Shown here: one piece after another, positions 5,675 to 36,463 of the stretch | Layout of the letters: the number at the start of each line of letters is the position of its first letter | How positions within the stretch are numbered: the first letter of the stretch is position 1 | Sequence record: OZ503099.1 | Origin: a phage | Strand: one strand, 5' to 3' | DNA: 48,179 bases | Notes under the pieces: generated by a model | Told to the model about the DNA's origin: nothing | Databases searched by the model: none | Seen by the model: the letters and a program-made list of their open reading frames with translations, nothing else | Program-made: the position numbers and the translations under genes

Positions 5675-8157
5675 TATTCGGTTGCTCTCCTGTTGGTGTT
5701 GTAGTTTCTTGAGATGGCTTGCCCTATTGGGCCATTTTCCGAAATATCACTCACAATCGTCTCAATTGTCACGCTGCCGTCACCGTTATCTCTGGCGCTG
5801 CTACTAACCTGTGCTGAACTGTTATTGATGATGCTATTATAAACCACAACGCCACTGCCACCTCCCGTTAGGTCTTTGTTGCTGATAACCTTTCCTGAGT
5901 TGCCAGGTATCATGTATTGCCTGCCTGTGCTCGCCTGGAATATCTCTGGTGCGTTTCCCTCGCCAACTTCGTACATACTTCCGGCACTAACAGGGCCACC
6001 ATTTTTACGCTTGCCAGCAATGCCCATTGCCATCGCCCCGAGAACGGCACCTACCCCAATTGCAGCAGCCCCGCCGAATGAGCCGATTGATGCCACGATT
6101 GCCGCAGGAGTCCATGCTGCCGTTGTGGTGGCTGCCGCTGCAGTAGATGCTGCTGTTGTGGTTGCCAATCCTGCTGTTTGCGCCGCTGTGGTTGTAGCTG
6201 TTGCTGCAACCTGCGCAGTCTGCCCCATAACCGCAGATTTTACCCACTGAACGCCCATTTCAACAAAGCTGTTTACCAGAGAGTTCAGCACTGTAGAGCC
6301 GAGGCTACGCATTGCATCCTGTACGCTCATTGTGCCTGTCAGCAATCCGGTGATGCTGTTTGATGCCGTGCTCATTGCTGAATCAAGAGCTGTACCGAAC
6401 AGCTGCGCGCCGAGGCTTTGTTGCTGCCATTCCTGCCACATGGCGTCCATTCTCTGCTGGCGATATTGTGCTTCAATTGCTGCGCGAGTTTGTTCAATCT
6501 CCGTGATTTTCTGCGGATATGCTGCGGCGTAGGCGTCAAGGTCAGCCATACGTTGCTGGTATTCGCTGTCAATGCCAGTGGTTGGCGACGCAATGGCGCG
6601 CACCCCCTGATATGATTTTTCTACTCGTTGCTTTTCTTTCTCCGCTTCCGCCTGTTCCTTCAATGCGTTCTTCTGGTCCCAAATCTTCGCAGCGTACTCA
6701 CCAGCCAGTTTTATTTGCTCCTGAGTGGCAGCTTTGCCAAGCGATTGCTGCGCGTTGAGGATTGCTTGCTCGCGGGATAGTTCGCTGGTTGATGTGGCAT
6801 TTAGCATGGTTTGCTGGCGTAATTTCTCCAGCTTTTCAGTTACTGATTCTTCAAGGTTGGCTTGCTTTGTTGACGCAGCTATGCGTTTTTTGTCTTGCTT
6901 TTCCTGCTCTTTTTTTGCAGCAAGCTCAGCCTTGTATGCCTCTATCTTGTCGAATGACGAGTTGATTGTTTGCTTGTCTGCATCACTTGCTCCAAGCTGT
7001 TCAGCTCTGTACAGTGCCTTTTGTCTTGCTGTAAAGGCGATGGTTTCACCTTCTTCCTTGATCGACTGGATGTAAGCCTGAAGCCTTTTCGTGTTTTCTT
7101 CAGTGGCTCTCGCATCCTCTTCTGAAGCTACTTTGTGCCCGTTCAGCATGTCGGTAGCCAGCTTTGTAGATTCTGCTGCCTGATCTGCCGAAATTGAATA
7201 CTCGCCAACCTTGCCAGTAAGCTCAGATAGTGACTTGTTTGCGTATCCATATTTCTGACTAAGGTCAACAGTCAGGTCACGCAGTTCCGCTATTGTTTCA
7301 GGATTGGCGTTTTTTCTCACCGCCGCCAGAGCTTCAACCAGCTTCAAAGCGTCCTCTGCGCTTATACCAAACTCATCTGCCAGGCTTTTTACCACCTGAT
7401 TAAGCTGGTTTAGTCCTAGAATATTACCCTCATATGTCCCACCAAGATTTTTGAGTGCTGTGTTTACATCAATGCCTCTTGCTTTCAGTGTATCAAGCTG
7501 ACTGATGGCTGCTGATAGTGGCGCTTTCCATGAGCCAAGTGCGTCACCAAGCTCATTGACTCCCTGCACTGAAGCCTTGATGATATTGTTTGCATCAATC
7601 AGAGCCATTGTTAACTGCGCTCTGGCGGCGTTTTCTGACTGTTTAGCCAGTGTTGCGAATTTGTCAGAGAGAACTACAACTCCATTAGCAGAAAGCTGGA
7701 ATATATCAGCAAGTCGCTGCTGTGCTGCGGTAAGCGCCTTTGTAGAAACGGTTGCGTTATCCATGCCAGCGATTAATGAGCCAACAATTACCGTACCGAT
7801 GGTTAACAGTGCACCGGCAACCGCGCCGCCTGAACCAAAGACGCTTAATAACTGACTACCTTGCTGACTTAGAGCAACAAGTGCTGATTGTCCACTCTGC
7901 ACCTGAACTACAAAGTCCTGAATCTGGTAGCCACCCTGCCGCATGGCGTTATTTAAACTGGAGAAACTCCTGCCAGATTTCTCAACTGTCGACGCGGTGT
8001 TTTTTAGACCTGTGTCAAGTTTATTTATCCCAGCAATTGACTCATCAATTGACTTCTCAATCTCCTGAAGAACCTTGTTTACCTTTTGCCCGCCAGTCGT
8101 CAGCCCGGATACATCCATCCCGACTTCGTAGACAATTCCGCCGACTTCTTCAGCCAT
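5674..8157 (-). CDS. Tail tape measure protein
   Basis: 827 aa, long coiled-coil-like stretches, Ala/Thr-rich and Gly-rich hydrophobic C-terminal region; position between chaperone and minor tail genes. Confidence 0.8.
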   Translation of the reverse strand: MAEEVGGIVYEVGMDVSGLTTGGQKVNKVLQEIEKSIDESIAGINKLDTGLKNTASTVEKSGRSFSSLNNAMRQGGYQIQDFVVQVQSGQSALVALSQQGSQLLSVFGSGGAVAGALLTIGTVIVGSLIAGMDNATVSTKALTAAQQRLADIFQLSANGVVVLSDKFATLAKQSENAARAQLTMALIDANNIIKASVQGVNELGDALGSWKAPLSAAISQLDTLKARGIDVNTALKNLGGTYEGNILGLNQLNQVVKSLADEFGISAEDALKLVEALAAVRKNANPETIAELRDLTVDLSQKYGYANKSLSELTGKVGEYSISADQAAESTKLATDMLNGHKVASEEDARATEENTKRLQAYIQSIKEEGETIAFTARQKALYRAEQLGASDADKQTINSSFDKIEAYKAELAAKKEQEKQDKKRIAASTKQANLEESVTEKLEKLRQQTMLNATSTSELSREQAILNAQQSLGKAATQEQIKLAGEYAAKIWDQKNALKEQAEAEKEKQRVEKSYQGVRAIASPTTGIDSEYQQRMADLDAYAAAYPQKITEIEQTRAAIEAQYRQQRMDAMWQEWQQQSLGAQLFGTALDSAMSTASNSITGLLTGTMSVQDAMRSLGSTVLNSLVNSFVEMGVQWVKSAVMGQTAQVAATATTTAAQTAGLATTTAASTAAAATTTAAWTPAAIVASIGSFGGAAAIGVGAVLGAMAMGIAGKRKNGGPVSAGSMYEVGEGNAPEIFQASTGRQYMIPGNSGKVISNKDLTGGGSGVVVYNSIINNSSAQVSSSARDNGDGSVTIETIVSDISENGPIGQAISRNYNTNRRATE

Positions 8158-8864
8158 TATGTATTCCTCGCTTTTTTAGCTTTGCGTTCAGCCAGTGCCT
8201 TCATGCGCTCACGGTCTGCTTTAGCCTGATCGTACTCTGCCGCGCGCTCTTCTTTCGTTAACCCCTTCGGCTCTGGGTATTTATTCTTAACCATCATCTG
8301 AAACTCTGTCATGGACAGGTTTTCGGCCTCATCGCGAGTCATATCGAAATGCGTGCGTGCTGAGATGATGTATTGCGACGCATGAAACTCGTTTGTAGTT
8401 TTCTTGCCTTGTTCTTCCAGACGCTCTGGAACCTTGAGTGGTGATTTTCCAATAATGCCGTGCTGCATCAGGTTGCGCGCAATAATAATAATGTCGTTCA
8501 CTGGCATGATGCCGGGAACATATCGCACACCGCGCGGAGTTGGCTTCCAACCACCAATCAGCACTGAAACATCATCTTCACAGCATGACTGCATGACGAT
8601 ATAGGCTGCGCTCAGCACATGGCGACCATACACGGGCTTACTGATGGTCTTCATGACCTGCATCTGCGCTCCAAATGGCAGGTATTCGACGTGCTGCAAC
8701 GGCGCAACATAATCAATGCCATTGAGCTTAGCGTATACCTCAACGATTTCTTTTGGTGTGCCAATTTCATTCATGGCGCGGAATGATGGCTTGAAGAAAA
8801 AACTCCTGTCAGAAAGCGAGATGCGCATCTCCCCGATTTCTGTTAGTGGCGTGCGATTGCTCAT
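8157..8864 (-). CDS. Putative tail assembly chaperone
   Basis: ORF directly upstream of tape measure with stop/start overlap; basic C-terminus; no frameshift site identified. Confidence 0.35.
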   Translation of the reverse strand: MSNRTPLTEIGEMRISLSDRSFFFKPSFRAMNEIGTPKEIVEVYAKLNGIDYVAPLQHVEYLPFGAQMQVMKTISKPVYGRHVLSAAYIVMQSCCEDDVSVLIGGWKPTPRGVRYVPGIMPVNDIIIIARNLMQHGIIGKSPLKVPERLEEQGKKTTNEFHASQYIISARTHFDMTRDEAENLSMTEFQMMVKNKYPEPKGLTKEERAAEYDQAKADRERMKALAERKAKKARNT

Positions 8865-8890
8865 GTTTTGCATCCTGAATTTGACTGATG

Positions 8891-8942
8891 TTGATTATAT
8901 CATCTCAGTAGTGTTGACACCTGCTAGGTGGTGATGTAGATT
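8891..8942. promoter_or_regulatory. Bidirectional promoter module
   Basis: Minus-facing extended -10 TGaTATAAT (8894-8902); plus-facing TTGACA (8914-8919), 17 bp, TAGATT (8937-8942). Confidence 0.45.
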
Positions 8943-8977: not shown

Positions 8978-9271
8978 ATGAAAATTAAAATGTTGATTAC
9001 ATCTGTCCTGTTGGCTTCTTCTTTTGCCGTCAGTGCAACTTCCGAGGTGTGCAAAAACATCGGAGAAATCGCCATGAACACTGCAGATGTTCGCGATAAC
9101 GGTATCAGCAAGAATCTTGCGGAAGTGGTGGTAAAAGGTTCCGCAAAAAACAACGAATCAGCAGAAATAATCGGCCTTGCTATCGTAGAAATGGTTTATG
9201 CACGCAAGGATATGACCAAAGAGCAATTGCGTGATGTGGCTGTTTCTTTGTGCGAAAAGCAAGGGATGTAA
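8978..9271 (+). CDS. Small secreted protein (N-terminal signal peptide)
   Basis: MKIKMLITSVLLASSFAVSA then TSE: typical Sec signal peptide; RBS GAGGTGAG upstream; first gene of plus-strand island A. Confidence 0.55.
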   Translation: MKIKMLITSVLLASSFAVSATSEVCKNIGEIAMNTADVRDNGISKNLAEVVVKGSAKNNESAEIIGLAIVEMVYARKDMTKEQLRDVAVSLCEKQGM

Positions 9272-9280
9272 GATTCTGCT

Positions 9281-9424
9281 ATGAACGAACAAACAAAAGC
9301 TGACCTGATTTTCTATACTGATTTGTATGTCGATGCGGGTTACGACTACGAAGAAGCGGAACGCATGGCGAAAGACTTACTCCGCGTGATTGGCGTGATT
9401 TTTGATGAGGATAAGGTGATATGA
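9281..9424 (+). CDS. Hypothetical small acidic protein (47 aa)
   Basis: ATG 9281 to TGA 9424, hand-translated; stop overlaps next start (ATGA). Confidence 0.35.
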   Translation: MNEQTKADLIFYTDLYVDAGYDYEEAERMAKDLLRVIGVIFDEDKVI

Positions 9425-9711
9425 AAAATTATGAAGAGATGAGCGATTTTGAGATTAACTGCCGTGTGCACGCAGAGATTATGCAAATCTCAGGGTTGAA
9501 TTCATTTAAGGCAAAAGACTACTGCAACAACCCATCTTATGCATGGCCCATAATAATTGATAATCACATGTCAATTGAATGCGTCACGGTTAACCGGCAT
9601 GCGTTTACATATCGCGTGTATCACTCTGCATCGTTCACTAAAAGTACGCACGAAAACCCCCTTCGTGCCGCCATGATCGTCTTCCTTAAAATGAATGAGG
9701 ATAAATTATGA
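9421..9711 (+). CDS. Hypothetical protein
   Basis: 96-aa ORF, translationally coupled within island A. Confidence 0.5.
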   Translation: MKNYEEMSDFEINCRVHAEIMQISGLNSFKAKDYCNNPSYAWPIIIDNHMSIECVTVNRHAFTYRVYHSASFTKSTHENPLRAAMIVFLKMNEDKL

Positions 9712-9908
9712 GCCAGTGGATTAAGTGTAGTGAAATGCTACCTGGTAACGGTAGTACAGATAAAGAGTTCTTGGTGTATGAAACTTTGAATAATGCCGTT
9801 CAGCACGACTACTACATTGTTCCTGACGACGAGAGAAAGCCATTCTGGAATCACTACGGAAAATATGTAACGCACTGGATGCCACTACCACAACCACCAC
9901 AAGAATAA
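9708..9908 (+). CDS. DUF551-like small phage protein
   Basis: MSQWIKCSEMLPGNG...THWMPLPQPP resembles the DUF551 pattern as I remember it. Confidence 0.45.
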   Translation: MSQWIKCSEMLPGNGSTDKEFLVYETLNNAVQHDYYIVPDDERKPFWNHYGKYVTHWMPLPQPPQE

Positions 9909-9910
9909 AC

Positions 9911-9937
9911 AAAGCCCCTTTCGGGGCTTTTTCTTTA
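9911..9937. terminator. Rho-independent terminator (bidirectional)
   Basis: AAAGCCCC-TTTC-GGGGCTTT hairpin followed by T-run; flanked by A-run on the other side. Confidence 0.6.
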
Positions 9938-10654
9938 TCAGGACACGGTGCACGCCGTGCTGATGATAATTTCCGGGTCAGTGGACGAATCTGTGACCGT
10001 AACGGTATACACACCATCGGTAGGGCTTGCCAGCGATGCGCCAGACTCACCACCGACAACCACGCCGTCTTTGCGCCACACGTAGGTGTAAGGAGCGACG
10101 CCACCTTCAACAGCAACAGTTAACGGGCTGCCAGTGCTGCCAGTTGATTGCAGGTCGGTGGTGAACTTCAGTGGCTCAAGGCTTTCGACGGTAACGCTGT
10201 CAGAATCGTAAACCTTGAACTCAAGGCTGCCAGTTACGATGTCGTTGGTGCCGCCTTCATAACTGATGCTGGTGATGTTGCAGTACGCGGTAACGATAGT
10301 TGCACCAGTTACCTCACGTACCCACAAAGAAGGCTGACGACGCGCTTTCAGTTCGGTGGCGTAAATCTCAACCAGACGATGAAAACCAAACTCATCGCTC
10401 GGGTCATTCTTGCGGATTTCAACCTCAGCACTGATGGTCATATCAGAGCTGGTTACGAGAGTGGAAACAAAGCCGCCAGCGGTATCCGCTTCCGACGTAG
10501 TGGTCTGCGGCGAGTAGTCAACGCCTTTACTGGTGGTTGAGCCTAAATATTTCCAGTCACCTGCATCCGGGACTGCGTCACCGCACCCTTCAGCAAGGAA
10601 CAGTCTGGTCATGCGACCGACCAGAACGCCTTTATCATTTGCACAAATAGCCAT
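9938..10654 (-). CDS. Major tail protein with C-terminal Ig-like domain (gpV-like position)
   Basis: 238 aa upstream of chaperone/tape measure; C-terminal segment with Ig-like (Big_2-type) sequence character. Confidence 0.5.
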   Translation of the reverse strand: MAICANDKGVLVGRMTRLFLAEGCGDAVPDAGDWKYLGSTTSKGVDYSPQTTTSEADTAGGFVSTLVTSSDMTISAEVEIRKNDPSDEFGFHRLVEIYATELKARRQPSLWVREVTGATIVTAYCNITSISYEGGTNDIVTGSLEFKVYDSDSVTVESLEPLKFTTDLQSTGSTGSPLTVAVEGGVAPYTYVWRKDGVVVGGESGASLASPTDGVYTVTVTDSSTDPEIIISTACTVS

Positions 10655-10690
10655 TTCGATCTCCGAATTGTGTTAGCTGCTAACGTGGTG

Positions 10691-10734
10691 ATTATATCAC
10701 AGGTGTTGACAGTGATTATTTTGTGGTGTAGATT
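10691..10734. promoter_or_regulatory. Bidirectional promoter module (paralogue of 8891-8942)
   Basis: Minus-facing TGaTATAAT (10691-10699); plus-facing TTGACA (10706-10711), 17 bp, TAGATT (10729-10734); shares GATTATATCA with the 8891 module. Confidence 0.45.
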
Positions 10735-10735
10735 G

Positions 10736-11228
10736 TATTTCAGATAGTTTTCGTTAGCGACTTTGCGGACTTTTTAGAAACTGACCACAAAGATAAATGC
10801 AAACGATGATGTTGTTCTGATGGCGGCGTAATAGCCTGTAAGTCAGCAAGGTCTTCCGATTCCTTGTAAACAAATTCGGCGCAGTGGCCCGCTGTGATTA
10901 ATAATGGGCACGCAACAGGTAAGAGCATTGGGTAATGTCAGCCTTGGTTCGAAGTCGAAAGACATGCGGTAATACCCAGCCCAAGTTCCAGTGCTCTTTC
11001 CGTTGTGGTGAAGCTCAATGGCGAGCTAGCAGATAGGCGACAGTGAAAATACTAGTCATGTAGCTGACCGCCGCGCGTACTGTAATCGGCAGCGCACCGA
11101 TGGAAGCAGGTTCGATTCCTGTCGCCACAACACTTAATATCCAGCATTATCGCAATCATATGTAGGGGTATGTATGGGTTACGGGGCTGGATATTAAGAA
11201 AGCACGCTGGCAATGCTTAAGCCAGTAA
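10736..11228 (+). other. Orphan transcribed non-coding region (candidate ncRNA or decayed island)
   Basis: About 500 bp between a consensus plus-strand promoter and a terminator, with no ORF above about 20 aa on the plus strand; 13-bp inverted repeat at 11141-11153 / 11187-11199. Confidence 0.3.
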
Positions 11229-11258
11229 TAAAGCCGCTTCATGCGGCTTTATTTATTT
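11229..11258. terminator. Rho-independent terminator
   Basis: AGCCGC-TTCAT-GCGGCT hairpin followed by TTATTTATTT. Confidence 0.5.
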
Positions 11259-11627
11259 CACAACCCGCAAAAGCAACTCATGCACAGGCCGCTTCTCTTC
11301 CGTTAACATCGGCCTACCGAGCGGCGCTTGCAACTGGATGTAGTTAACGCATGAATCAATCGGATTAGTTTTGATGTATTCGATAATCTCATTGGCTTTA
11401 GCGTCAACATCCGACACGTTGTATTGACCATGTTTGCCAACAACATACAGAGAGAAATAGAAATCACCGCCGAGTCCATCCATAACCTGCGTACCGCCAT
11501 TGGATTGCAGGACAATAAATTGCTCATTGCCGTCTCCGGTGTCATTCCAGAACTGCAACTGCGAAGTCCAGCCATCGTATAATCCGGCATCCTGAAGATA
11601 TGCGTCAACCAGCTCAAGCATATTCAT
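11253..11627 (-). CDS. Hypothetical structural protein (connector/tail completion region)
   Basis: 124-aa ORF in an overlapping gene series between head and tail genes. Confidence 0.45.
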   Translation of the reverse strand: MNMLELVDAYLQDAGLYDGWTSQLQFWNDTGDGNEQFIVLQSNGGTQVMDGLGGDFYFSLYVVGKHGQYNVSDVDAKANEIIEYIKTNPIDSCVNYIQLQAPLGRPMLTEEKRPVHELLLRVVK

Positions 11628-20683: not shown

Positions 20684-21130
20684 GGTTAACTCTCCACGGT
20701 TAGTTTGTGGTCGAATTATAACACAGGGAGATATAGCACCATGAGGCGGTAGCCAGTGCAAACAATGGCGAATTGGTGAGCGCGTATAGCGTGAGAAAGT
20801 AAGTGATAGGGATTATGTTCATGGGCTACCTCCTGATTAAATGATAGCAGCCCACGATGAACAAAAGATATACGGAGTTAGTCTGAAATCACATCATCCA
20901 TAAATGCAAGCGCAGCACCTGACAGGCAGAACAGAGCGCCATAACAAATCATCTGGTACAGAGTGTCTGCCTCAAATACCCTTGCGAATGCGTAGGCTGA
21001 TAACATCCAAAGCAATGGAATCATAATTTACCTCTCCACGCTCTAATCAACTCCTCTATTCCAGCAAATAATAAGTAGCCGGAAAATAAAGTTAAAATCC
21101 AGTGGTCAGCGAACCAGTTCAGGAAGTCCA

Positions 21131-26036: not shown

Positions 26037-26076
26037 TTGATGTAGATTGAGAGGTGGTGCATACTATCTACATCAA
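26037..26076 (+). promoter_or_regulatory. Promoter of island D with palindromic operator-like site
   Basis: TTGATG (26037-26042), 17 bp, CATACT (26060-26065); inverted repeat TTGATGTAGAT (26037-26047) / ATCTACATCAA (26066-26076). Confidence 0.45.
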
Positions 26077-30026: not shown

Positions 30027-30099
30027 ATGTCACCAATAAAAAATCCCATCACGTTGGATGGGATTATAACACGAGCTTGCAGTGGCTATGGTTGATGGC

Positions 30100-30694: not shown

Positions 30695-31102
30695 TCAACA
30701 AAGTTCACCATCAGTTATCATCAACAACCTCTGCCATTTATTCACAGGTTTACATAACTCAGCTTTCAGCCTGCTCAGTGAACCTGTAATATCAGGCCAT
30801 TCAGTAAACGGAACGAATCGCACAAAGCGATAATCAGCACCAGACCAGTGCCAGCCAAGTGTGTAATCAACATAAGAGCCGTCCGCCTGCATGTTGATGT
30901 AATGTGCTGTTCCGCTATCATCATTAATCATAACCACCTCAACCACTGCGCACGAACTACCATCACGAGCACGGTTTACTGCATTCAGATGGCAAGCATG
31001 ATTGTACAGGCCAGCGCCATCAATGAATGAAATATCAATCTTTTTGGTGTACCTCTTATCCGCAGCATCGCGGATTATTTTCTTTAGTTTATTATTAAAC
31101 AC
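30695..31102 (-). CDS. Hypothetical protein
   Basis: 135-aa ORF downstream of terminase. Confidence 0.45.
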   Translation of the reverse strand: MFNNKLKKIIRDAADKRYTKKIDISFIDGAGLYNHACHLNAVNRARDGSSCAVVEVVMINDDSGTAHYINMQADGSYVDYTLGWHWSGADYRFVRFVPFTEWPDITGSLSRLKAELCKPVNKWQRLLMITDGELC

Positions 31103-31103
31103 A

Positions 31104-31370
31104 TCACCCTCTCAAAAAATCATTCTTGCAGCAGATACCCTTATATCCGCGCTTCTCCTGCAGGTTAACGAAAACATCATCCAGAACGCGTAGCAGGAAG
31201 TCTTCGTCGATATCATACCGACGACAAATCACCTCGTCAGGCACGCCAGCTCGCGCCAGTGAATAAACCTGCTCTTTTTCCTCCTGTGTGAACCCTGCAT
31301 AGCTGCGCATAGTGATATCTCCGATAAGCCTGATGTAGATTATACTATTCGCTCGGTGTAGATTGGTCAA
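31104..31370 (-). CDS. Hypothetical protein with helix-turn-helix-like segment
   Basis: 88-aa ORF. Confidence 0.4.
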   Translation of the reverse strand: MTNLHRANSIIYIRLIGDITMRSYAGFTQEEKEQVYSLARAGVPDEVICRRYDIDEDFLLRVLDDVFVNLQEKRGYKGICCKNDFLRG

Positions 31371-31386
31371 GTGTGGTGATGAAGAT

Positions 31387-32811
31387 TTATCGCCTGCGAC
31401 GGATTAGCATTCCACTGCCACGCTGAACGATGTGGTCATTGAGTGCATAACGAACCGCGTCCCAGTAGTGGTTATATGCATCAACAATATCAGTCAGCAC
31501 ATTCCCTGTCAGCTTATCAACTTTGTAGCTGTACATTGCCGCCTCATTCTGCATCTCCTTGCATCGTTCGTGAATGACAATGCTGTCGCAGCCGCGTAAC
31601 CATGTCACGCCATCCTCGACACTGCCGGGCCATTTTGTGCATGGATGAATGTCAAAGCCAGAGCGCTTGATGTGGCTGATAGTTTCTGGTCGCGCGCAGT
31701 CGGCATACCATCGTGCGCGCTTAGCCATCGGGAATGATTGCTCCATCGCAGCTGGCGTGTCGGTAATCTCAAGCCCCACCTTTCCGTACTCGCGATTAAT
31801 ATAAATATTGCGTCGCCCGCCGGGTAACTCTTCGATGTAAACCTCAACCATTGCGGTTGGATCGGTGGAAAACCCAAAGTCCATCCCGAAGTATGGTCCA
31901 TGCCATTCAGGCTTGACCTCGAAGTTATCAATGAGCCATTTTCCGCCAAATACCTGTTCGTCGCTACGCTTGTTGAATTTTCCTTCATACACCCAAAGGT
32001 AGCGATCATAATCCACTGCCTTCATCTGGTTCATGTGCTGTTTAAGTTCTTCCGTGAACCACGGGTTGTGAACGTAGTTAACATTAACAACAACGATGTC
32101 ATCATCCTGATATATGCCATCTACCATCTTGTCGATGTAAGGCTCAACAAAGTTAGTCCATGTCGGGTCCGTCTCTTTGTTCGGGTTAAAAACAATAATA
32201 ATTTCAGAACCAGCGGCGCGCACCGTTGGAATTAACGTATCCCATGACACCTGACTGATGTTTTCGGATTCTTCACAGAACACGTCTGTAAGGCCAGCCA
32301 TGCCTTTGATTGCGGTTATGTTTCGCCAAAGGCCACGAAAAACAAACTTTGATCTCGTTGTGTGGTGTGTTATCTCGCCATCCACGCAACGATATTCCTG
32401 AGTGTGCCCCTTCCTGTTTATCTCATCAACCAGTTCGGCATAGCTTGATTCTTTGATTGAGTTCTGTATCTCACGGAAGCATCCGACGCGGCTGTTGCGG
32501 AATCTTGCCTTTTCTATAAGGTAAGAAACAACGTTAGCCGTCTTTCCGCTGCCCCTACCCCCATAGAACACCTTGAAACGGCGAGGATAAAGCAGCAGCT
32601 CCATTCGCTCAGGTATTAATATTGTTGGCTTCTCGTCTGTTTCTGACACGCCAGTGGCTGTCATTTTAAGGCACTTAACCACATTCGGTGTACCGTCAGG
32701 CAATAGCTTATCGACAATACCGAAAACAGAAGACTCTGGTTTTGCAGTTGAATTGCCTACTGCTTGCTCAAGTTTTTCTATCGCAACGCTTGAGAGTCTT
32801 TTACGCGCCAT
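31387..32811 (-). CDS. Terminase large subunit
   Basis: Walker A YGGRGSGKT near the N-terminus, conserved acidic nuclease-type residues in the C-terminal half, 474 aa. Confidence 0.8.
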   Translation of the reverse strand: MARKRLSSVAIEKLEQAVGNSTAKPESSVFGIVDKLLPDGTPNVVKCLKMTATGVSETDEKPTILIPERMELLLYPRRFKVFYGGRGSGKTANVVSYLIEKARFRNSRVGCFREIQNSIKESSYAELVDEINRKGHTQEYRCVDGEITHHTTRSKFVFRGLWRNITAIKGMAGLTDVFCEESENISQVSWDTLIPTVRAAGSEIIIVFNPNKETDPTWTNFVEPYIDKMVDGIYQDDDIVVVNVNYVHNPWFTEELKQHMNQMKAVDYDRYLWVYEGKFNKRSDEQVFGGKWLIDNFEVKPEWHGPYFGMDFGFSTDPTAMVEVYIEELPGGRRNIYINREYGKVGLEITDTPAAMEQSFPMAKRARWYADCARPETISHIKRSGFDIHPCTKWPGSVEDGVTWLRGCDSIVIHERCKEMQNEAAMYSYKVDKLTGNVLTDIVDAYNHYWDAVRYALNDHIVQRGSGMLIRRRR

Positions 32812-35727: not shown

Positions 35728-35920
35728 CTACTCTGCGATTCCAGTCGACGACTGCCTGTTCTGCAGACTCCCTGAAGTTTGTCATTCTCGCCCCGCATGA
35801 GCATCGAATGAGAAAGTATGGTCTTTCATGGTCAGATGAACGCCATAGCTTAACTTTTGGTTCACCACCGCAAAACGGACAACTCTTGATAATCAACTCA
35901 CTCATATAATCACCATTCAA
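35717..35920 (-). CDS. Lar-family-like zinc-ribbon protein (possible restriction alleviation)
   Basis: IIKSCPFCGGEPKVK...YFLIRCSCGARMTNF: CPFCGG and CSCG motifs as in Lar-family proteins. Confidence 0.5.
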   Translation of the reverse strand: MNGDYMSELIIKSCPFCGGEPKVKLWRSSDHERPYFLIRCSCGARMTNFRESAEQAVVDWNRRVDGD

Positions 35921-36434: not shown

Positions 36435-36463
36435 AATCTACATCAATGATGATTCTACGTCAA
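36435..36463 (-). promoter_or_regulatory. Minus-strand promoter for the long leftward transcription unit
   Basis: On the minus strand TTGACG (36458-36463), 17 bp, TAGATT (36435-36440); two copies of the recurrent 13-bp motif. Confidence 0.45.

Follow-up and report, generated by a model that had tools for sequence, protein, structure and literature searches.

Back-to-back promoter pairs in a siphovirus tail operon, and behind one of them a tmRNA-like RNA module with a leader predicted to pair with host tmRNA

How can accessory cassettes that face the wrong way sit within a phage tail operon, and what is it that they carry? The question is raised by a stretch of phage DNA of 48,179 nucleotides (nt; sequence record OZ503099.1), here called 'the window', by which the whole stretch is meant. 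It belongs to a siphovirus about 90% identical to the group of Sa179lw, Akira, STGO-35-1 and SeSz-2, and two plus-strand inserts fill two consecutive junctions of its minus-strand tail operon, one of them an island of small protein genes and the other an RNA operon. At the head of each insert is a module of back-to-back promoters, module 1 for the island and module 2 for the RNA operon (Table 1). The promoter observation is correct, non-random and ordinary in kind; the interest is in the cargo of module 2. On balance we think it probable, from the comparisons set out below, that the locus combines two back-to-back promoter regions with an RNA module resembling transfer-messenger RNA (tmRNA), the leader of which would pair with the tmRNA of the host.

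What do the two modules share? The word TGATTATATCA stands at 8892-8902 and 10689-10699 and has no further exact copy in the 48 kb, while GTGTTGACA-N17-TAGATT, at 8911-8942 and 10703-10734, is found twice where 100 dinucleotide shuffles give an expectation of 0.00. When module 1 is aligned locally, with gaps allowed, to the entire genome, its best match is module 2, with a score of 23 (shuffled genomes: 16.0 +/- 1.3, maximum 20). A first interpretation made from the letters of the window alone (the 'sequence-only reading') had picked out two look-alike modules here and proposed that they be aligned; the shared blocks and the alignment, in which each is the other's best match in the genome, bear it out. 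The arrangement of about 35 bp that it took to be common to both stands as three identical blocks but not as one rigid unit, since the gap from ATTATATCA to TTGACA is 11 nt in module 1 and 6 nt in module 2.

Each half of each module has the appearance of a promoter, in that near-consensus hexamers 16-18 bp apart, or TGnTATAAT, the features by which a sigma-70 promoter is recognized, are present. The minus-facing extended -10 that had been assigned to the tail genes is where it was said to be: TGATATAAT lies just upstream of the gene for a DUF6246 protein, with the tape measure gene behind it, and of the major tail protein gene. The first in-frame ATGs are 29 nt (8873) and 45 nt (10654) from it, and the likelier start of the DUF6246 gene, at 8864, is at 38 nt. 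This likelier start is an observation in its own right: the ATG at 8864 has AGGA 8 nt upstream and fits the 708-nt annotation in Akira and Sa179lw, and the start of the listed open reading frame (ORF) at 8873 has a Shine-Dalgarno spacing that is unusable. On the other side, both plus-facing promoters are the top plus-strand sigma-70 candidates of a promoter scan of 5-15 kb, with 10/12 matches. They had been called consensus promoters, and promoters are indeed present, but they are near-consensus only, with a -10, TAGATT, that has just 4/6 consensus matches and a TG before it that is one position off the canonical extended -10. They precede plus-strand cassettes, again as first described, and each cassette ends in its own terminator.

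Is there reason to think that these elements function? Akira, Sa179lw and STGO-35-1 have both modules in the corresponding places; there the spacer sequence drifts, but the hexamers do not change and stay 17 bp apart, and ATTATATCA and the GGTG(A)TG that precedes TAGATT are likewise invariant. In a more distant clade of Klebsiella phages the same RNA is separated from the major tail gene by module 2 in the form ATTATATCA-TG-TTGACA-N17-TAGATT, with the hexamers and the 17-bp spacer length unchanged and the spacer sequence different. Invariant elements with drifting spacers, in two clades, are the footprint expected of functional promoters.

Neither half is peculiar to the modules. TGTAGATT has 9 copies in the window (1.57 +/- 1.17 expected), all but one of them on the plus strand (8/9); the copies at 36442, on the minus strand, and 43475 are 17 bp after a TTGACG or TTGCCT hexamer, and these two together with that at 26041 are 28-43 nt ahead of a start codon. 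Sa179lw has the same plus-facing class at 30814 and 35777, the latter carrying GGTGATGTAGATT, identical to module 1, and GGTGATGTAGATT with TTGACG-N17 recurs at other promoters of the window and of Sa179lw. As to the minus-facing half, TGnTATAAT has four sites in the window, all on the minus strand, and those at 20723 and 30071 are, like the two in the modules, followed within a few tens of nt by the start of a minus-strand gene. The four such sites of Sa179lw precede gp03, the major tail gene, the gene in the tail-assembly-chaperone (TAC) position with the tape measure gene, and the portal gene. TGnTATAAT is a promoter class lacking a -35 element that, in this phage group, is found solely before structural operons. 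The two further sites of the window (20715-20723 and 30063-30071, minus strand) read TGTTATAAT; the Sa179lw counterparts of the genes behind them appear to be gp03 and the portal gene, and Sa179lw has the sites at the same four positions.

It is against this background that the origin of the modules has to be considered. The sequence-only reading held that a single bidirectional cassette had been duplicated and that each plus-strand cassette had been inserted with its own promoter, which we now regard as unlikely. That the modules are mutual best matches in the genome does speak for duplication, as do identical blocks of 11, 9 and 8 nt that include non-consensus positions, and TGATATAATCA, which is specific to the two tail promoters where the other two extended -10 sites have TGTTATAAT. 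However, the shared blocks are class consensus present at other promoters, a third region (31329-31387) scores nearly as well as module 2 (22 versus 23), and neither flanking repeats nor insertion scars were seen. The distance between the halves is 2, 6 or 11 nt, and this variation means that the promoter halves behave as independent elements. Among relatives, moreover, the promoters are the fixed points and it is the cargo that moves: LPSTLL and PJN025 have a module 2 identical to the one in the window, ahead of a transcript whose first ~110 nt are unrelated sequence. The sequence-only reading is thus borne out only in part: mutual best matching stands, joint insertion of promoter and cassette is not supported, and the likeness of the modules comes mainly from their shared use of two class consensus sequences found genome-wide, one plus-facing and one minus-facing.

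The third region merits a description of its own. Within 31329-31387, in a 75-bp gap between two minus-strand genes, TGTAGATT-like motifs occur at 31334, 31357 and 31380 (TGAAGATT), and Sa179lw (L257; L numbers are our labels for loci) has an equivalent iterated region at about 35777-35850. These motifs could form an array of operators or iterons and not a promoter. Might the motifs of the modules themselves then be operators for a phage or host regulator, instead of or besides promoters, with the modules serving as early/late regulatory switches? The candidates would be TGTAGATT and the inverted repeat TGAT-N3-ATCA. We entertain the idea as a minority possibility. It draws on the ~6-fold enrichment and strong strand bias of TGTAGATT, on the three copies exactly 23 bp apart in an intergenic gap with no plus-strand gene ahead of them and on their recurrence in Sa179lw, on the palindrome TGAT...ATCA included in TGATTATATCA, and on the Cro-like and helix-turn-helix proteins in the Sa179lw annotation. 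Yet at four or five sites the motif is exactly 17 bp after TTGACR and 28-43 nt before a start codon, as a -10 predicts, and no regulator was identified or tied to it.

Read as promoters, the modules suggest a simple arrangement. The plus-facing TTGACR-N15-TG-TAGATT promoter, probably read early by host sigma-70, would drive an accessory cassette ending in its own terminator. The terminator of such an antiparallel cassette would also stop, or collide with, transcription of the tail operon, and the back-facing -35-less extended -10, TGATATAAT, would restart tail-gene transcription beyond the insert.

What does module 2 drive? The sequence-only reading had left 10736-11228 as an 'orphan unit'. 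It is in fact a structured non-coding RNA operon with a tmRNA-like first module, hereafter the tag module; none of 100 shuffles folds as well as the operon. A covariance model (R1) built from the alignment of the tag module has a single copy in the window, 10746-10913, at 193.9 bits. The collection behind it has 37 distinct sequences, from this phage group, Kuttervirus, Miltonvirus, Felixounavirus, Mooglevirus, N4-like Schitoviridae, P1-like Punavirus, Klebsiella siphoviruses and lambdoid prophages; the covariation and invariance figures given here are from an alignment of 24 sequences, and a 14-mer scan of viral contigs, the matches of which were mostly due to chance, was filtered with nhmmer.

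The anatomy of the tag module is that of the mRNA-like half of a tmRNA, with a tag that resembles a degron. The six nt before the resume codon are AUAAAU, and their U(-5) and A(-4), the equivalents of tmRNA U85 and A86, are invariant in the 24 sequences; A86 of Escherichia coli tmRNA is nearly universal and is essential for frame setting (PMC2481249). The tag reads GCA AAC GAU GAU GUU GUU CUG AUG GCG GCG UAA UAG, which has the 10 codons of the E. coli tag, ANDENYALAA. All 23 nucleotide versions of the tag have 10 codons, begin with AND or ANE and finish with [AV]A (among them ANEEMYLAVA, ANDEQFLAVA, ANDNVFLAVA, ANDSEVLMAA, ANDDLMMVAA, ANEEAYLMVA and ANDNAYLMVA). Entropy within the tag is greatest at third codon positions (1.07, against 0.60 at first and 0.42 at second positions), and synonymous changes are seen at Ala1, Asn2, Asp3 and Ala10, with all four Ala codons used at the last position. 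The window offers the frame no start of its own: between the tag and a UAG eight codons upstream there is no AUG, GUG or UUG. A conventional small ORF in the overlapping AUG frame was considered and rejected, its peptides differing in both length and sequence (MQTMMLF*, MQTKKCIWQ*) and being absent in PhaxI.

Structure follows the message as it does in tmRNA. The stop codon is in the loop of a helix-5-like hairpin that has compensatory GC/AU and CG/UA changes, and downstream is an H-type pseudoknot, with pairing in 99.3% (S1) and 100% (S2) of the alignment (slid controls 34-49%) and three pairs in each stem in which both partners have changed. A further hairpin has a covarying stem and the conserved loop GUGUGAUUAAUAA, for which no pairing partner was found. 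Relaxed Rfam searches give tmRNA_permuted (30.4 bits, E = 2.4e-4) plus beta_tmRNA on 10708-10880, with the alignments centred on AUAAAUGCAAACGAUGA...GCGGCGUAA, at bit scores that are below the gathering thresholds (RF04321 30.4/47, RF01850 18.1/84, RF00023 10.4/47); the same weak tmRNA matches on the tag region recur in several unrelated phages. Homology of the module to E. coli ssrA outside the tag amounts to words of just 7-8 nt.

Does that make it a tmRNA? It shares with the tmRNA families (RF00023, RF01849-51 and RF04321) an mRNA-like domain with an A-rich linker containing the U85/A86 equivalents, a GCA resume codon without a start, a 10-codon tag of AND...AA type, a stop codon in a helix-5-like loop with a pseudoknot downstream, and weak matches to four of the models. 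It differs in having no acceptor stem, no G3:U70, no CCA, no T-arm of its own, no pseudoknot PK1 (its one pseudoknot is its only one) and a score below all the Rfam gathering thresholds. ARAGORN calls no tmRNA in any of 33 module loci. The only T-arm in the window is at 11106, within a separate tRNA-like domain (11002-11131), and Sa179lw keeps the tag module without that domain. An acceptor domain, the defining feature, was thus not found, and by that feature the tag module is not a tmRNA.

Could the missing half be encoded apart, with the module as the coding piece of a split tmRNA and either the tRNA-like domain at 11002-11131 or a gene of Felix-O1-like phages as its acceptor? A dedicated search for a T-arm with a G3:U70 acceptor returned just one candidate, a tRNA-like gene lacking a D-arm that is beside the module in some Felix-O1-like phages. 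In Alf5 (L006) this gene, unannotated, occupies 1665-1746 and follows the tag module at a distance of about 30 nt; it reads CGGGGCG...CGCCUCG-ACCA, has G3:U70 and A73, which are alanine identity elements, has a UCU anticodon loop and scores 31.7 bits with the Rfam tRNA model. Loci L119 and L132 have a normal tRNA-Arg(UCU) in its place. Two-piece tmRNAs do occur in nature (PMC11915505), and transcripts with the module nearly always include tRNAs or tRNA-like domains as well. Nevertheless we judge a split tmRNA improbable: beyond the silence of ARAGORN, the G3:U70 acceptor is confined to those few phages, Sa179lw has the module with no tRNA-like domain at all, the domain in the window has neither G3:U70 nor CCA, and pairing that would hold two pieces together was not found. 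A permuted tmRNA with the helix of the neighbouring H unit (see below) as P2 or as acceptor stem was also tried by eye and rejected, the T-loops being at inconsistent positions and a CCA end never being present. What the module does have, where tmRNA has the 5' half of its tRNA-like domain, is a leader complementary to tmRNA.

This leader, (U)AGUUUUCGU...GCGACUUUGCGG...CUUUUUAGAAACUGACC, is the most conserved 5' part of the module, and its complement is in E. coli tmRNA (the host sequence used was from L196). The duplex predicted by RNAduplex has a free energy of -42.2 kcal/mol, which dinucleotide shuffles (-18.6 +/- 3.6) equalled in 0 of 300 trials. The same 0/300 was obtained for 20 of 24 distinct leaders, with the Felix-O1-type, L044-type and L104 leaders at 0.3-1.7%. 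With the unfolding of both partners paid for by cofolding, the net gain (ddG) is about -25; the leader with the phage's own message gives -20.2. Specificity was gauged from both sides. Along tmRNA the best target is nt 57-108 (median of other windows, -17.9). Along the phage genome, among 12,034 windows of 46 nt, none binds tmRNA nt 51-115 better than the leader, and with nt 74-108 the leader is first of 24,076 windows, at -28.9 (mean -8.1 +/- 3.3).

The pattern of conservation, too, fits a real duplex. The blocks that pair coincide with the invariant alignment columns, and the sole variable-length insert of the leader falls at the junction of helices 1 and 2, where in some variants it adds pairs to the host GCA-AAC codons. 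The Felix-O1-type leader, GCGUCUAUUUU, of different sequence and register, pairs with the same host segment, AAAAUAGUCGC, and both it and the L044-type leader still pair with nt 76-106 (p 0-0.017). The host segment, GCCGCAAAAAAAUAGUC followed by GCAAACGACGAAAAC, is the commonest form among 120 ssrA genes of Enterobacterales and Pasteurellales. Further, the phage message departs from that of the host exactly where the leader pairs, with AAAU-GC versus AGUC-GC and GAUGAUGUUGU versus GACGAAAACUA. Complementarity beyond that of composition-matched controls, in conserved nucleotides and kept in divergent homologues, is what is asked of a trans-acting antisense RNA, and the leader shows it. That all of this, the likeness of the modules and the tmRNA likeness of the RNA alike, is chance is scarcely credible. 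Promoter consensus elements do recur by convergence and the Rfam matches are under their thresholds, but a chance origin would have to contend with the shuffle statistics, conservation, covariation, the covariance-model score, the codon pattern of the tag and the leader pairing, and with a module conserved across unrelated phage families.

How might a message that has no acceptor be put to use? The 42-nt leader would anneal to host tmRNA nt 57-106, masking PK1, the resume codon and tag codons 3-6. The phage RNA would leave the duplex next to host nt 57 and present its own resume codon after the A-rich linker, which measures 12 nt in the variants looked at by eye, save one with 13 nt; native tmRNA has 11 nt between PK1 and G90. 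The docked host tmRNA would supply its alanyl-tRNA-like domain and SmpB, with the phage RNA silencing the host template and offering its own tag, or, in a weaker version, host tagging would at least be blocked. We infer antisense capture of host tmRNA, possibly with tag replacement. The full form of the proposal, a 'tmRNA hijacker' whose leader disrupts PK1 and masks the host resume codon while tmRNA-SmpB goes on rescuing ribosomes but writes a tag chosen by the phage, and which is borne by many Enterobacterales phages (this siphovirus group, Felix-O1-like, Vi1-like, N4-like and P1-like phages and lambdoid prophages), is put forward tentatively, as a possibility that we do not expect to prevail. 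Docking would account for the missing acceptor domain, the conservation of the tag peptide, U(-5)A(-4) and the linker length, and the invariant leader, and also for the confinement of the module to phages whose hosts have this tmRNA sequence in common.

A more modest function has also to be weighed, namely that of a pure antisense inhibitor or decoy of tmRNA-SmpB, with the message untranslated and its tmRNA-like features a legacy of a captured ssrA fragment. The leader complementarity spans the host resume codon and tag; synthetic anti-tmRNA oligonucleotides suffice to stop trans-translation in vitro (PMC3384345), tmRNA is inactivated when nucleotides around its resume codon are base-paired (PMC2481249), and mycobacteriophage DS6A has a tmRNA consisting of the tRNA-like domain only that is thought to inhibit tmRNA (PMC4131195; PMC11915505). 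Why, however, would an untranslated RNA keep 10 codons, an AND/ANE start and an [AV]A end in 23 versions, with a third-position excess and synonymous changes, or a conserved U(-5)A(-4) and a 12-nt linker? A pure antisense RNA needs none of these and would leave the coding constraints unexplained, and we consider it rather doubtful as the whole explanation.

Antisense capture, with or without the tag, faces difficulties of its own, to be added to the imperfect plus-facing promoters. The whole case rests on sequence. Duplex energy alone is not decisive since the runners-up are near: -40.5 against -42.2 for nt 51-115, and an unrelated window at -25.4 against -28.9 for nt 74-108. The PK1 part of the target is structured in native tmRNA and would need invasion. 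Species with the tag ANDETYALAA have one mismatch (GAAACC) in the 11-bp helix; these presumably include Salmonella, the host of many of these phages. The helix-5-like hairpin is paired in just 67% of alignment cells, and the module is not always at a 5' end, being in the interior of a longer transcript in several phages and in lambdoid prophages. Lastly, we know of no precedent for a ribosome resuming on a message that is only base-paired to tmRNA at this site.

Table 1. Features of the tail region of the window, and predicted helices between the phage leader and E. coli tmRNA
Feature	Coordinates	Strand	Remarks
DUF6246 protein gene, TAC position	8157-8873	-	family match
Module 1, back-to-back promoter pair	8892-8942	both	between DUF6246/TAC-position gene (-) and island (+)
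Extended -10 TGATATAAT, module 1	8894-8902	-	late structural-gene class; for DUF6246 gene and tape measure; expected start ~8887
Plus promoter TTGACA-17-TAGATT, module 1	8914-8942	+	TG directly before -10; drives island; first ATG 8978
Accessory island, four small genes	8978-9908	+	exported 97-aa protein, 47-aa protein, NinX, DUF551
Terminator-like hairpin	9911-9930	both strands called	between island end and major tail gene end
Major tail protein gene	9938-10654	-	phrog_853, E = 7.7e-85
Module 2, back-to-back promoter pair	10689-10734	both	between major tail gene (-) and RNA operon (+)
Extended -10 TGATATAAT, module 2	10691-10699	-	for major tail gene; GGAG 6 nt before ATG 10654
Plus promoter TTGACA-17-TAGATT, module 2	10706-10734	+	expected start ~10741-10743
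Non-coding RNA operon	10741-11255	+	~515 nt, no credible ORF; fold z = -2.86
Leader complementary to host tmRNA nt 57-106	10745-10786	+	six colinear helices, 38 bp (RNAduplex), listed below
Leader UAGUUUUCGUU / tmRNA GACGAAAACUA			11 bp; tag codons 3-6
Leader GCGACU / tmRNA AGUCGC			6 bp; -4 to +2 around resume codon G90
Leader UUGCGG / tmRNA CCGCAA			6 bp; PK1 3' strand and linker
Leader CUUUUUA / tmRNA UAAAAAG			7 bp; PK1 3' strand and linker
Leader GA / tmRNA UC			2 bp; PK1
Leader CUGACC / tmRNA GGUUGG			6 bp; PK1
A-rich 12-nt linker ACAAAGAUAAAU with U(-5)A(-4)	10787-10798	+	equivalent to tmRNA U85/A86
Tag frame	10799-10834	+	GCA resume codon, 10 codons ANDDVVLMAA, UAA UAG
Helix-5-like hairpin	10825-10836	+	stop codon in loop
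H-type pseudoknot	10846-10879	+	S1 10846-10851 with 10862-10867; S2 10856-10859 with 10876-10879
Hairpin with covarying stem	10887-10909	+	conserved loop GCUGUGAUUAAUAAU; near end of R1 match
H unit, long helix ACAACAGGUAAGAGCAUUG with CAGUGCUCUUUCCGUUG	10913-11006	+	around variable insert; covariation by eye, P1-like and N4-like versions
tRNA-like domain	11002-11131	+	9-bp acceptor-like stem, D-arm, ~50-nt insert, covarying hairpin with conserved CAGCGCA loop, T-arm (11106-11122)
3' module	11133-11226	+	13-bp stem around AUGUAGGGGUAUGUAUGGG, then short hairpin; kept in L001-L003, L135, L136
Intrinsic terminator of RNA operon	11230-11258	+	AAAGCCGC-UUCA-UGCGGCUUU, then U-rich tract
Tail terminator protein gene	11253-11627	-	PF23842, E = 3.7e-41; convergent with RNA operon

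Read in the minus-strand direction, the tail region begins with the tail terminator gene and continues with the RNA operon, the major tail gene, the island, the TAC-position gene and the tape measure gene, the last a minus-strand gene for 827 amino acids (aa) behind the DUF6246 gene. The gene content of the island differs among relatives, an Imm gene, for instance, being present or absent. With its own promoter and terminator within a structural operon, and content that varies between relatives, it has the marks of a moron as conceived by Hendrix, an autonomously transcribed and terminated accessory unit of a phage late operon. The likeness extends to its variable genes of the lambdoid nin-region type (NinX, DUF551). 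The difference is that here the cassettes are antiparallel to the operon, and beside each is a structural-gene promoter facing the other way that would make good the interruption.

Among relatives the RNA operon is a mosaic, in which conserved cores are combined with exchanged hairpins. Within it ARAGORN finds neither tRNA nor tmRNA, and no Rfam family reaches its gathering threshold; Akira, STGO-35-1 and PJN025 have a tRNA-Met just before the terminator. In LPSTLL (L135, 2563-2660) and PJN025 (L136, 2256-2350) the unrelated segment replaces the tag module and has the same H unit after it, a natural tag-minus variant. H units occur in many loci (L045, L091, L036, L005 and L129 among them) as a helix of ACAAC-AGGUAAGAGC... 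with ...GCUCUUUCC-GUUGU, which has CUAUC/GAUAG in other lineages; there are one to three per transcript, with highly variable inserts in which T-loop hairpins are often present. In many loci an H unit is directly upstream of the tag module, and the helix covaries between lineages, as judged by eye only. The tRNA-like domain, which ARAGORN does not call, is 94% identical to a segment of the lambdoid phage HK75 (L134, 1516-1642) in the late-operon leader downstream of pR'-tR', and is also in Pantoea phage PdC23. The core motif of the 3' module is found, too, in the N4-like phage phi G17 (L129, about 1500-1540), just upstream of a tRNA; the 3' module is another widespread unannotated phage RNA module.

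How far does the tag module extend? By blastn the 5' ~190 nt of the RNA operon are in 831 phage records from unrelated families, and the module is in 656 of 5,426 complete E. coli genomes (~12%), at 554 plasmid and 150 chromosomal places. The plasmid places are mostly in molecules of ~90-115 kb that match like the P1-like phage RCS47, which suggests that the carriers are P1-like phage-plasmids. The one chromosomal example that was opened is a lambdoid prophage with the module between the Q antiterminator and holin genes, and in HK75 sister modules of the same RNA are in the annotated pR'-tR' leader. Usually the module is beside tRNA genes. Where annotation could be checked no RNA feature was over it, and some records place a short hypothetical coding sequence there. 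Two gaps of more than 600 unannotated nt are filled by RNA modules of the same family, that from Q to holin in the E. coli H19 prophage (L128, 2645-3718) and that from dmt to tRNA-Asn in RCS47 (L007, 1276-1950). The classic 'empty' leaders of lambdoid and P1-like phages probably encode processed non-coding RNAs.

Phage tmRNAs themselves are not new. The census of 2014 had them in mycobacteriophages and Bacillus phage G only (PMC4131195), and its list does not have the phages that bear the module; that of 2025 has 79 phage sequences, found via ARAGORN or BLAST (PMC11915505). The module resembles those of mycobacteriophage cluster C, Bacillus phage G and DS6A in being a phage-borne derivative of a trans-translation RNA, and DS6A in particular has only one tmRNA half, which probably interferes with host tmRNA (PMC4131195; PMC11915505). 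The known ones, however, were found by their tRNA-like domain, and here it is the message half that is kept, in phages of Enterobacterales. The module is a message-only relative of tmRNA that is absent from Rfam. An earlier description of this RNA was not found in the full-text literature, the coverage of which was incomplete, so that a prior description is possible.

Other comparisons are also instructive. Anti-ssrA oligonucleotides, used in ribosome display and cell-free translation, are likewise antisense to tmRNA and prevent release or tagging of stalled ribosomes (PMC3384345), but they are artificial DNA, and the phage leader is natural RNA that would also bring a replacement message. Like the stable RNAs of the T4 tRNA operon, the RNAs considered here are non-coding and co-transcribed with phage tRNAs. 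ROOL and GOLLD are also structured phage or prophage RNAs of several hundred nt, by tRNA genes and with variable peripheral domains; they are from other hosts, lack a tag-like message and give no Rfam match here even at E <= 10. AgvB and AsxR are prophage anti-small RNAs of pathogenic E. coli that likewise come from lambdoid late regions and base-pair to host non-coding RNAs. Their targets are Hfq-dependent small RNAs, not tmRNA, and they have no message-like domain.

For this poorly studied group of coliphages and Salmonella phages two promoter classes are now defined, an early-looking TTGACR-N15-TG-TAGATT and a structural TGnTATAAT, and their back-to-back modules suggest how antiparallel accessory cassettes can sit in a tail operon without silencing the genes behind. 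The message-only module escaped tmRNA searches keyed to the tRNA-like domain. If hijacking is true, the C-terminus of the tag would change from ...ALAA to ...LMAA, ...LAVA or ...LMVA, often with loss of Tyr7, and the fate of tagged proteins would be altered; from what is known of recognition by ClpX and SspB, such changes could alter their degradation. If the pairing is true, phages manipulate the main bacterial pathway for ribosome rescue and protein tagging by RNA-RNA capture, an idea of relevance to the long-standing finding that host ssrA is needed by some phages, and the pairing could offer a natural route to the re-programming of tmRNA tags.

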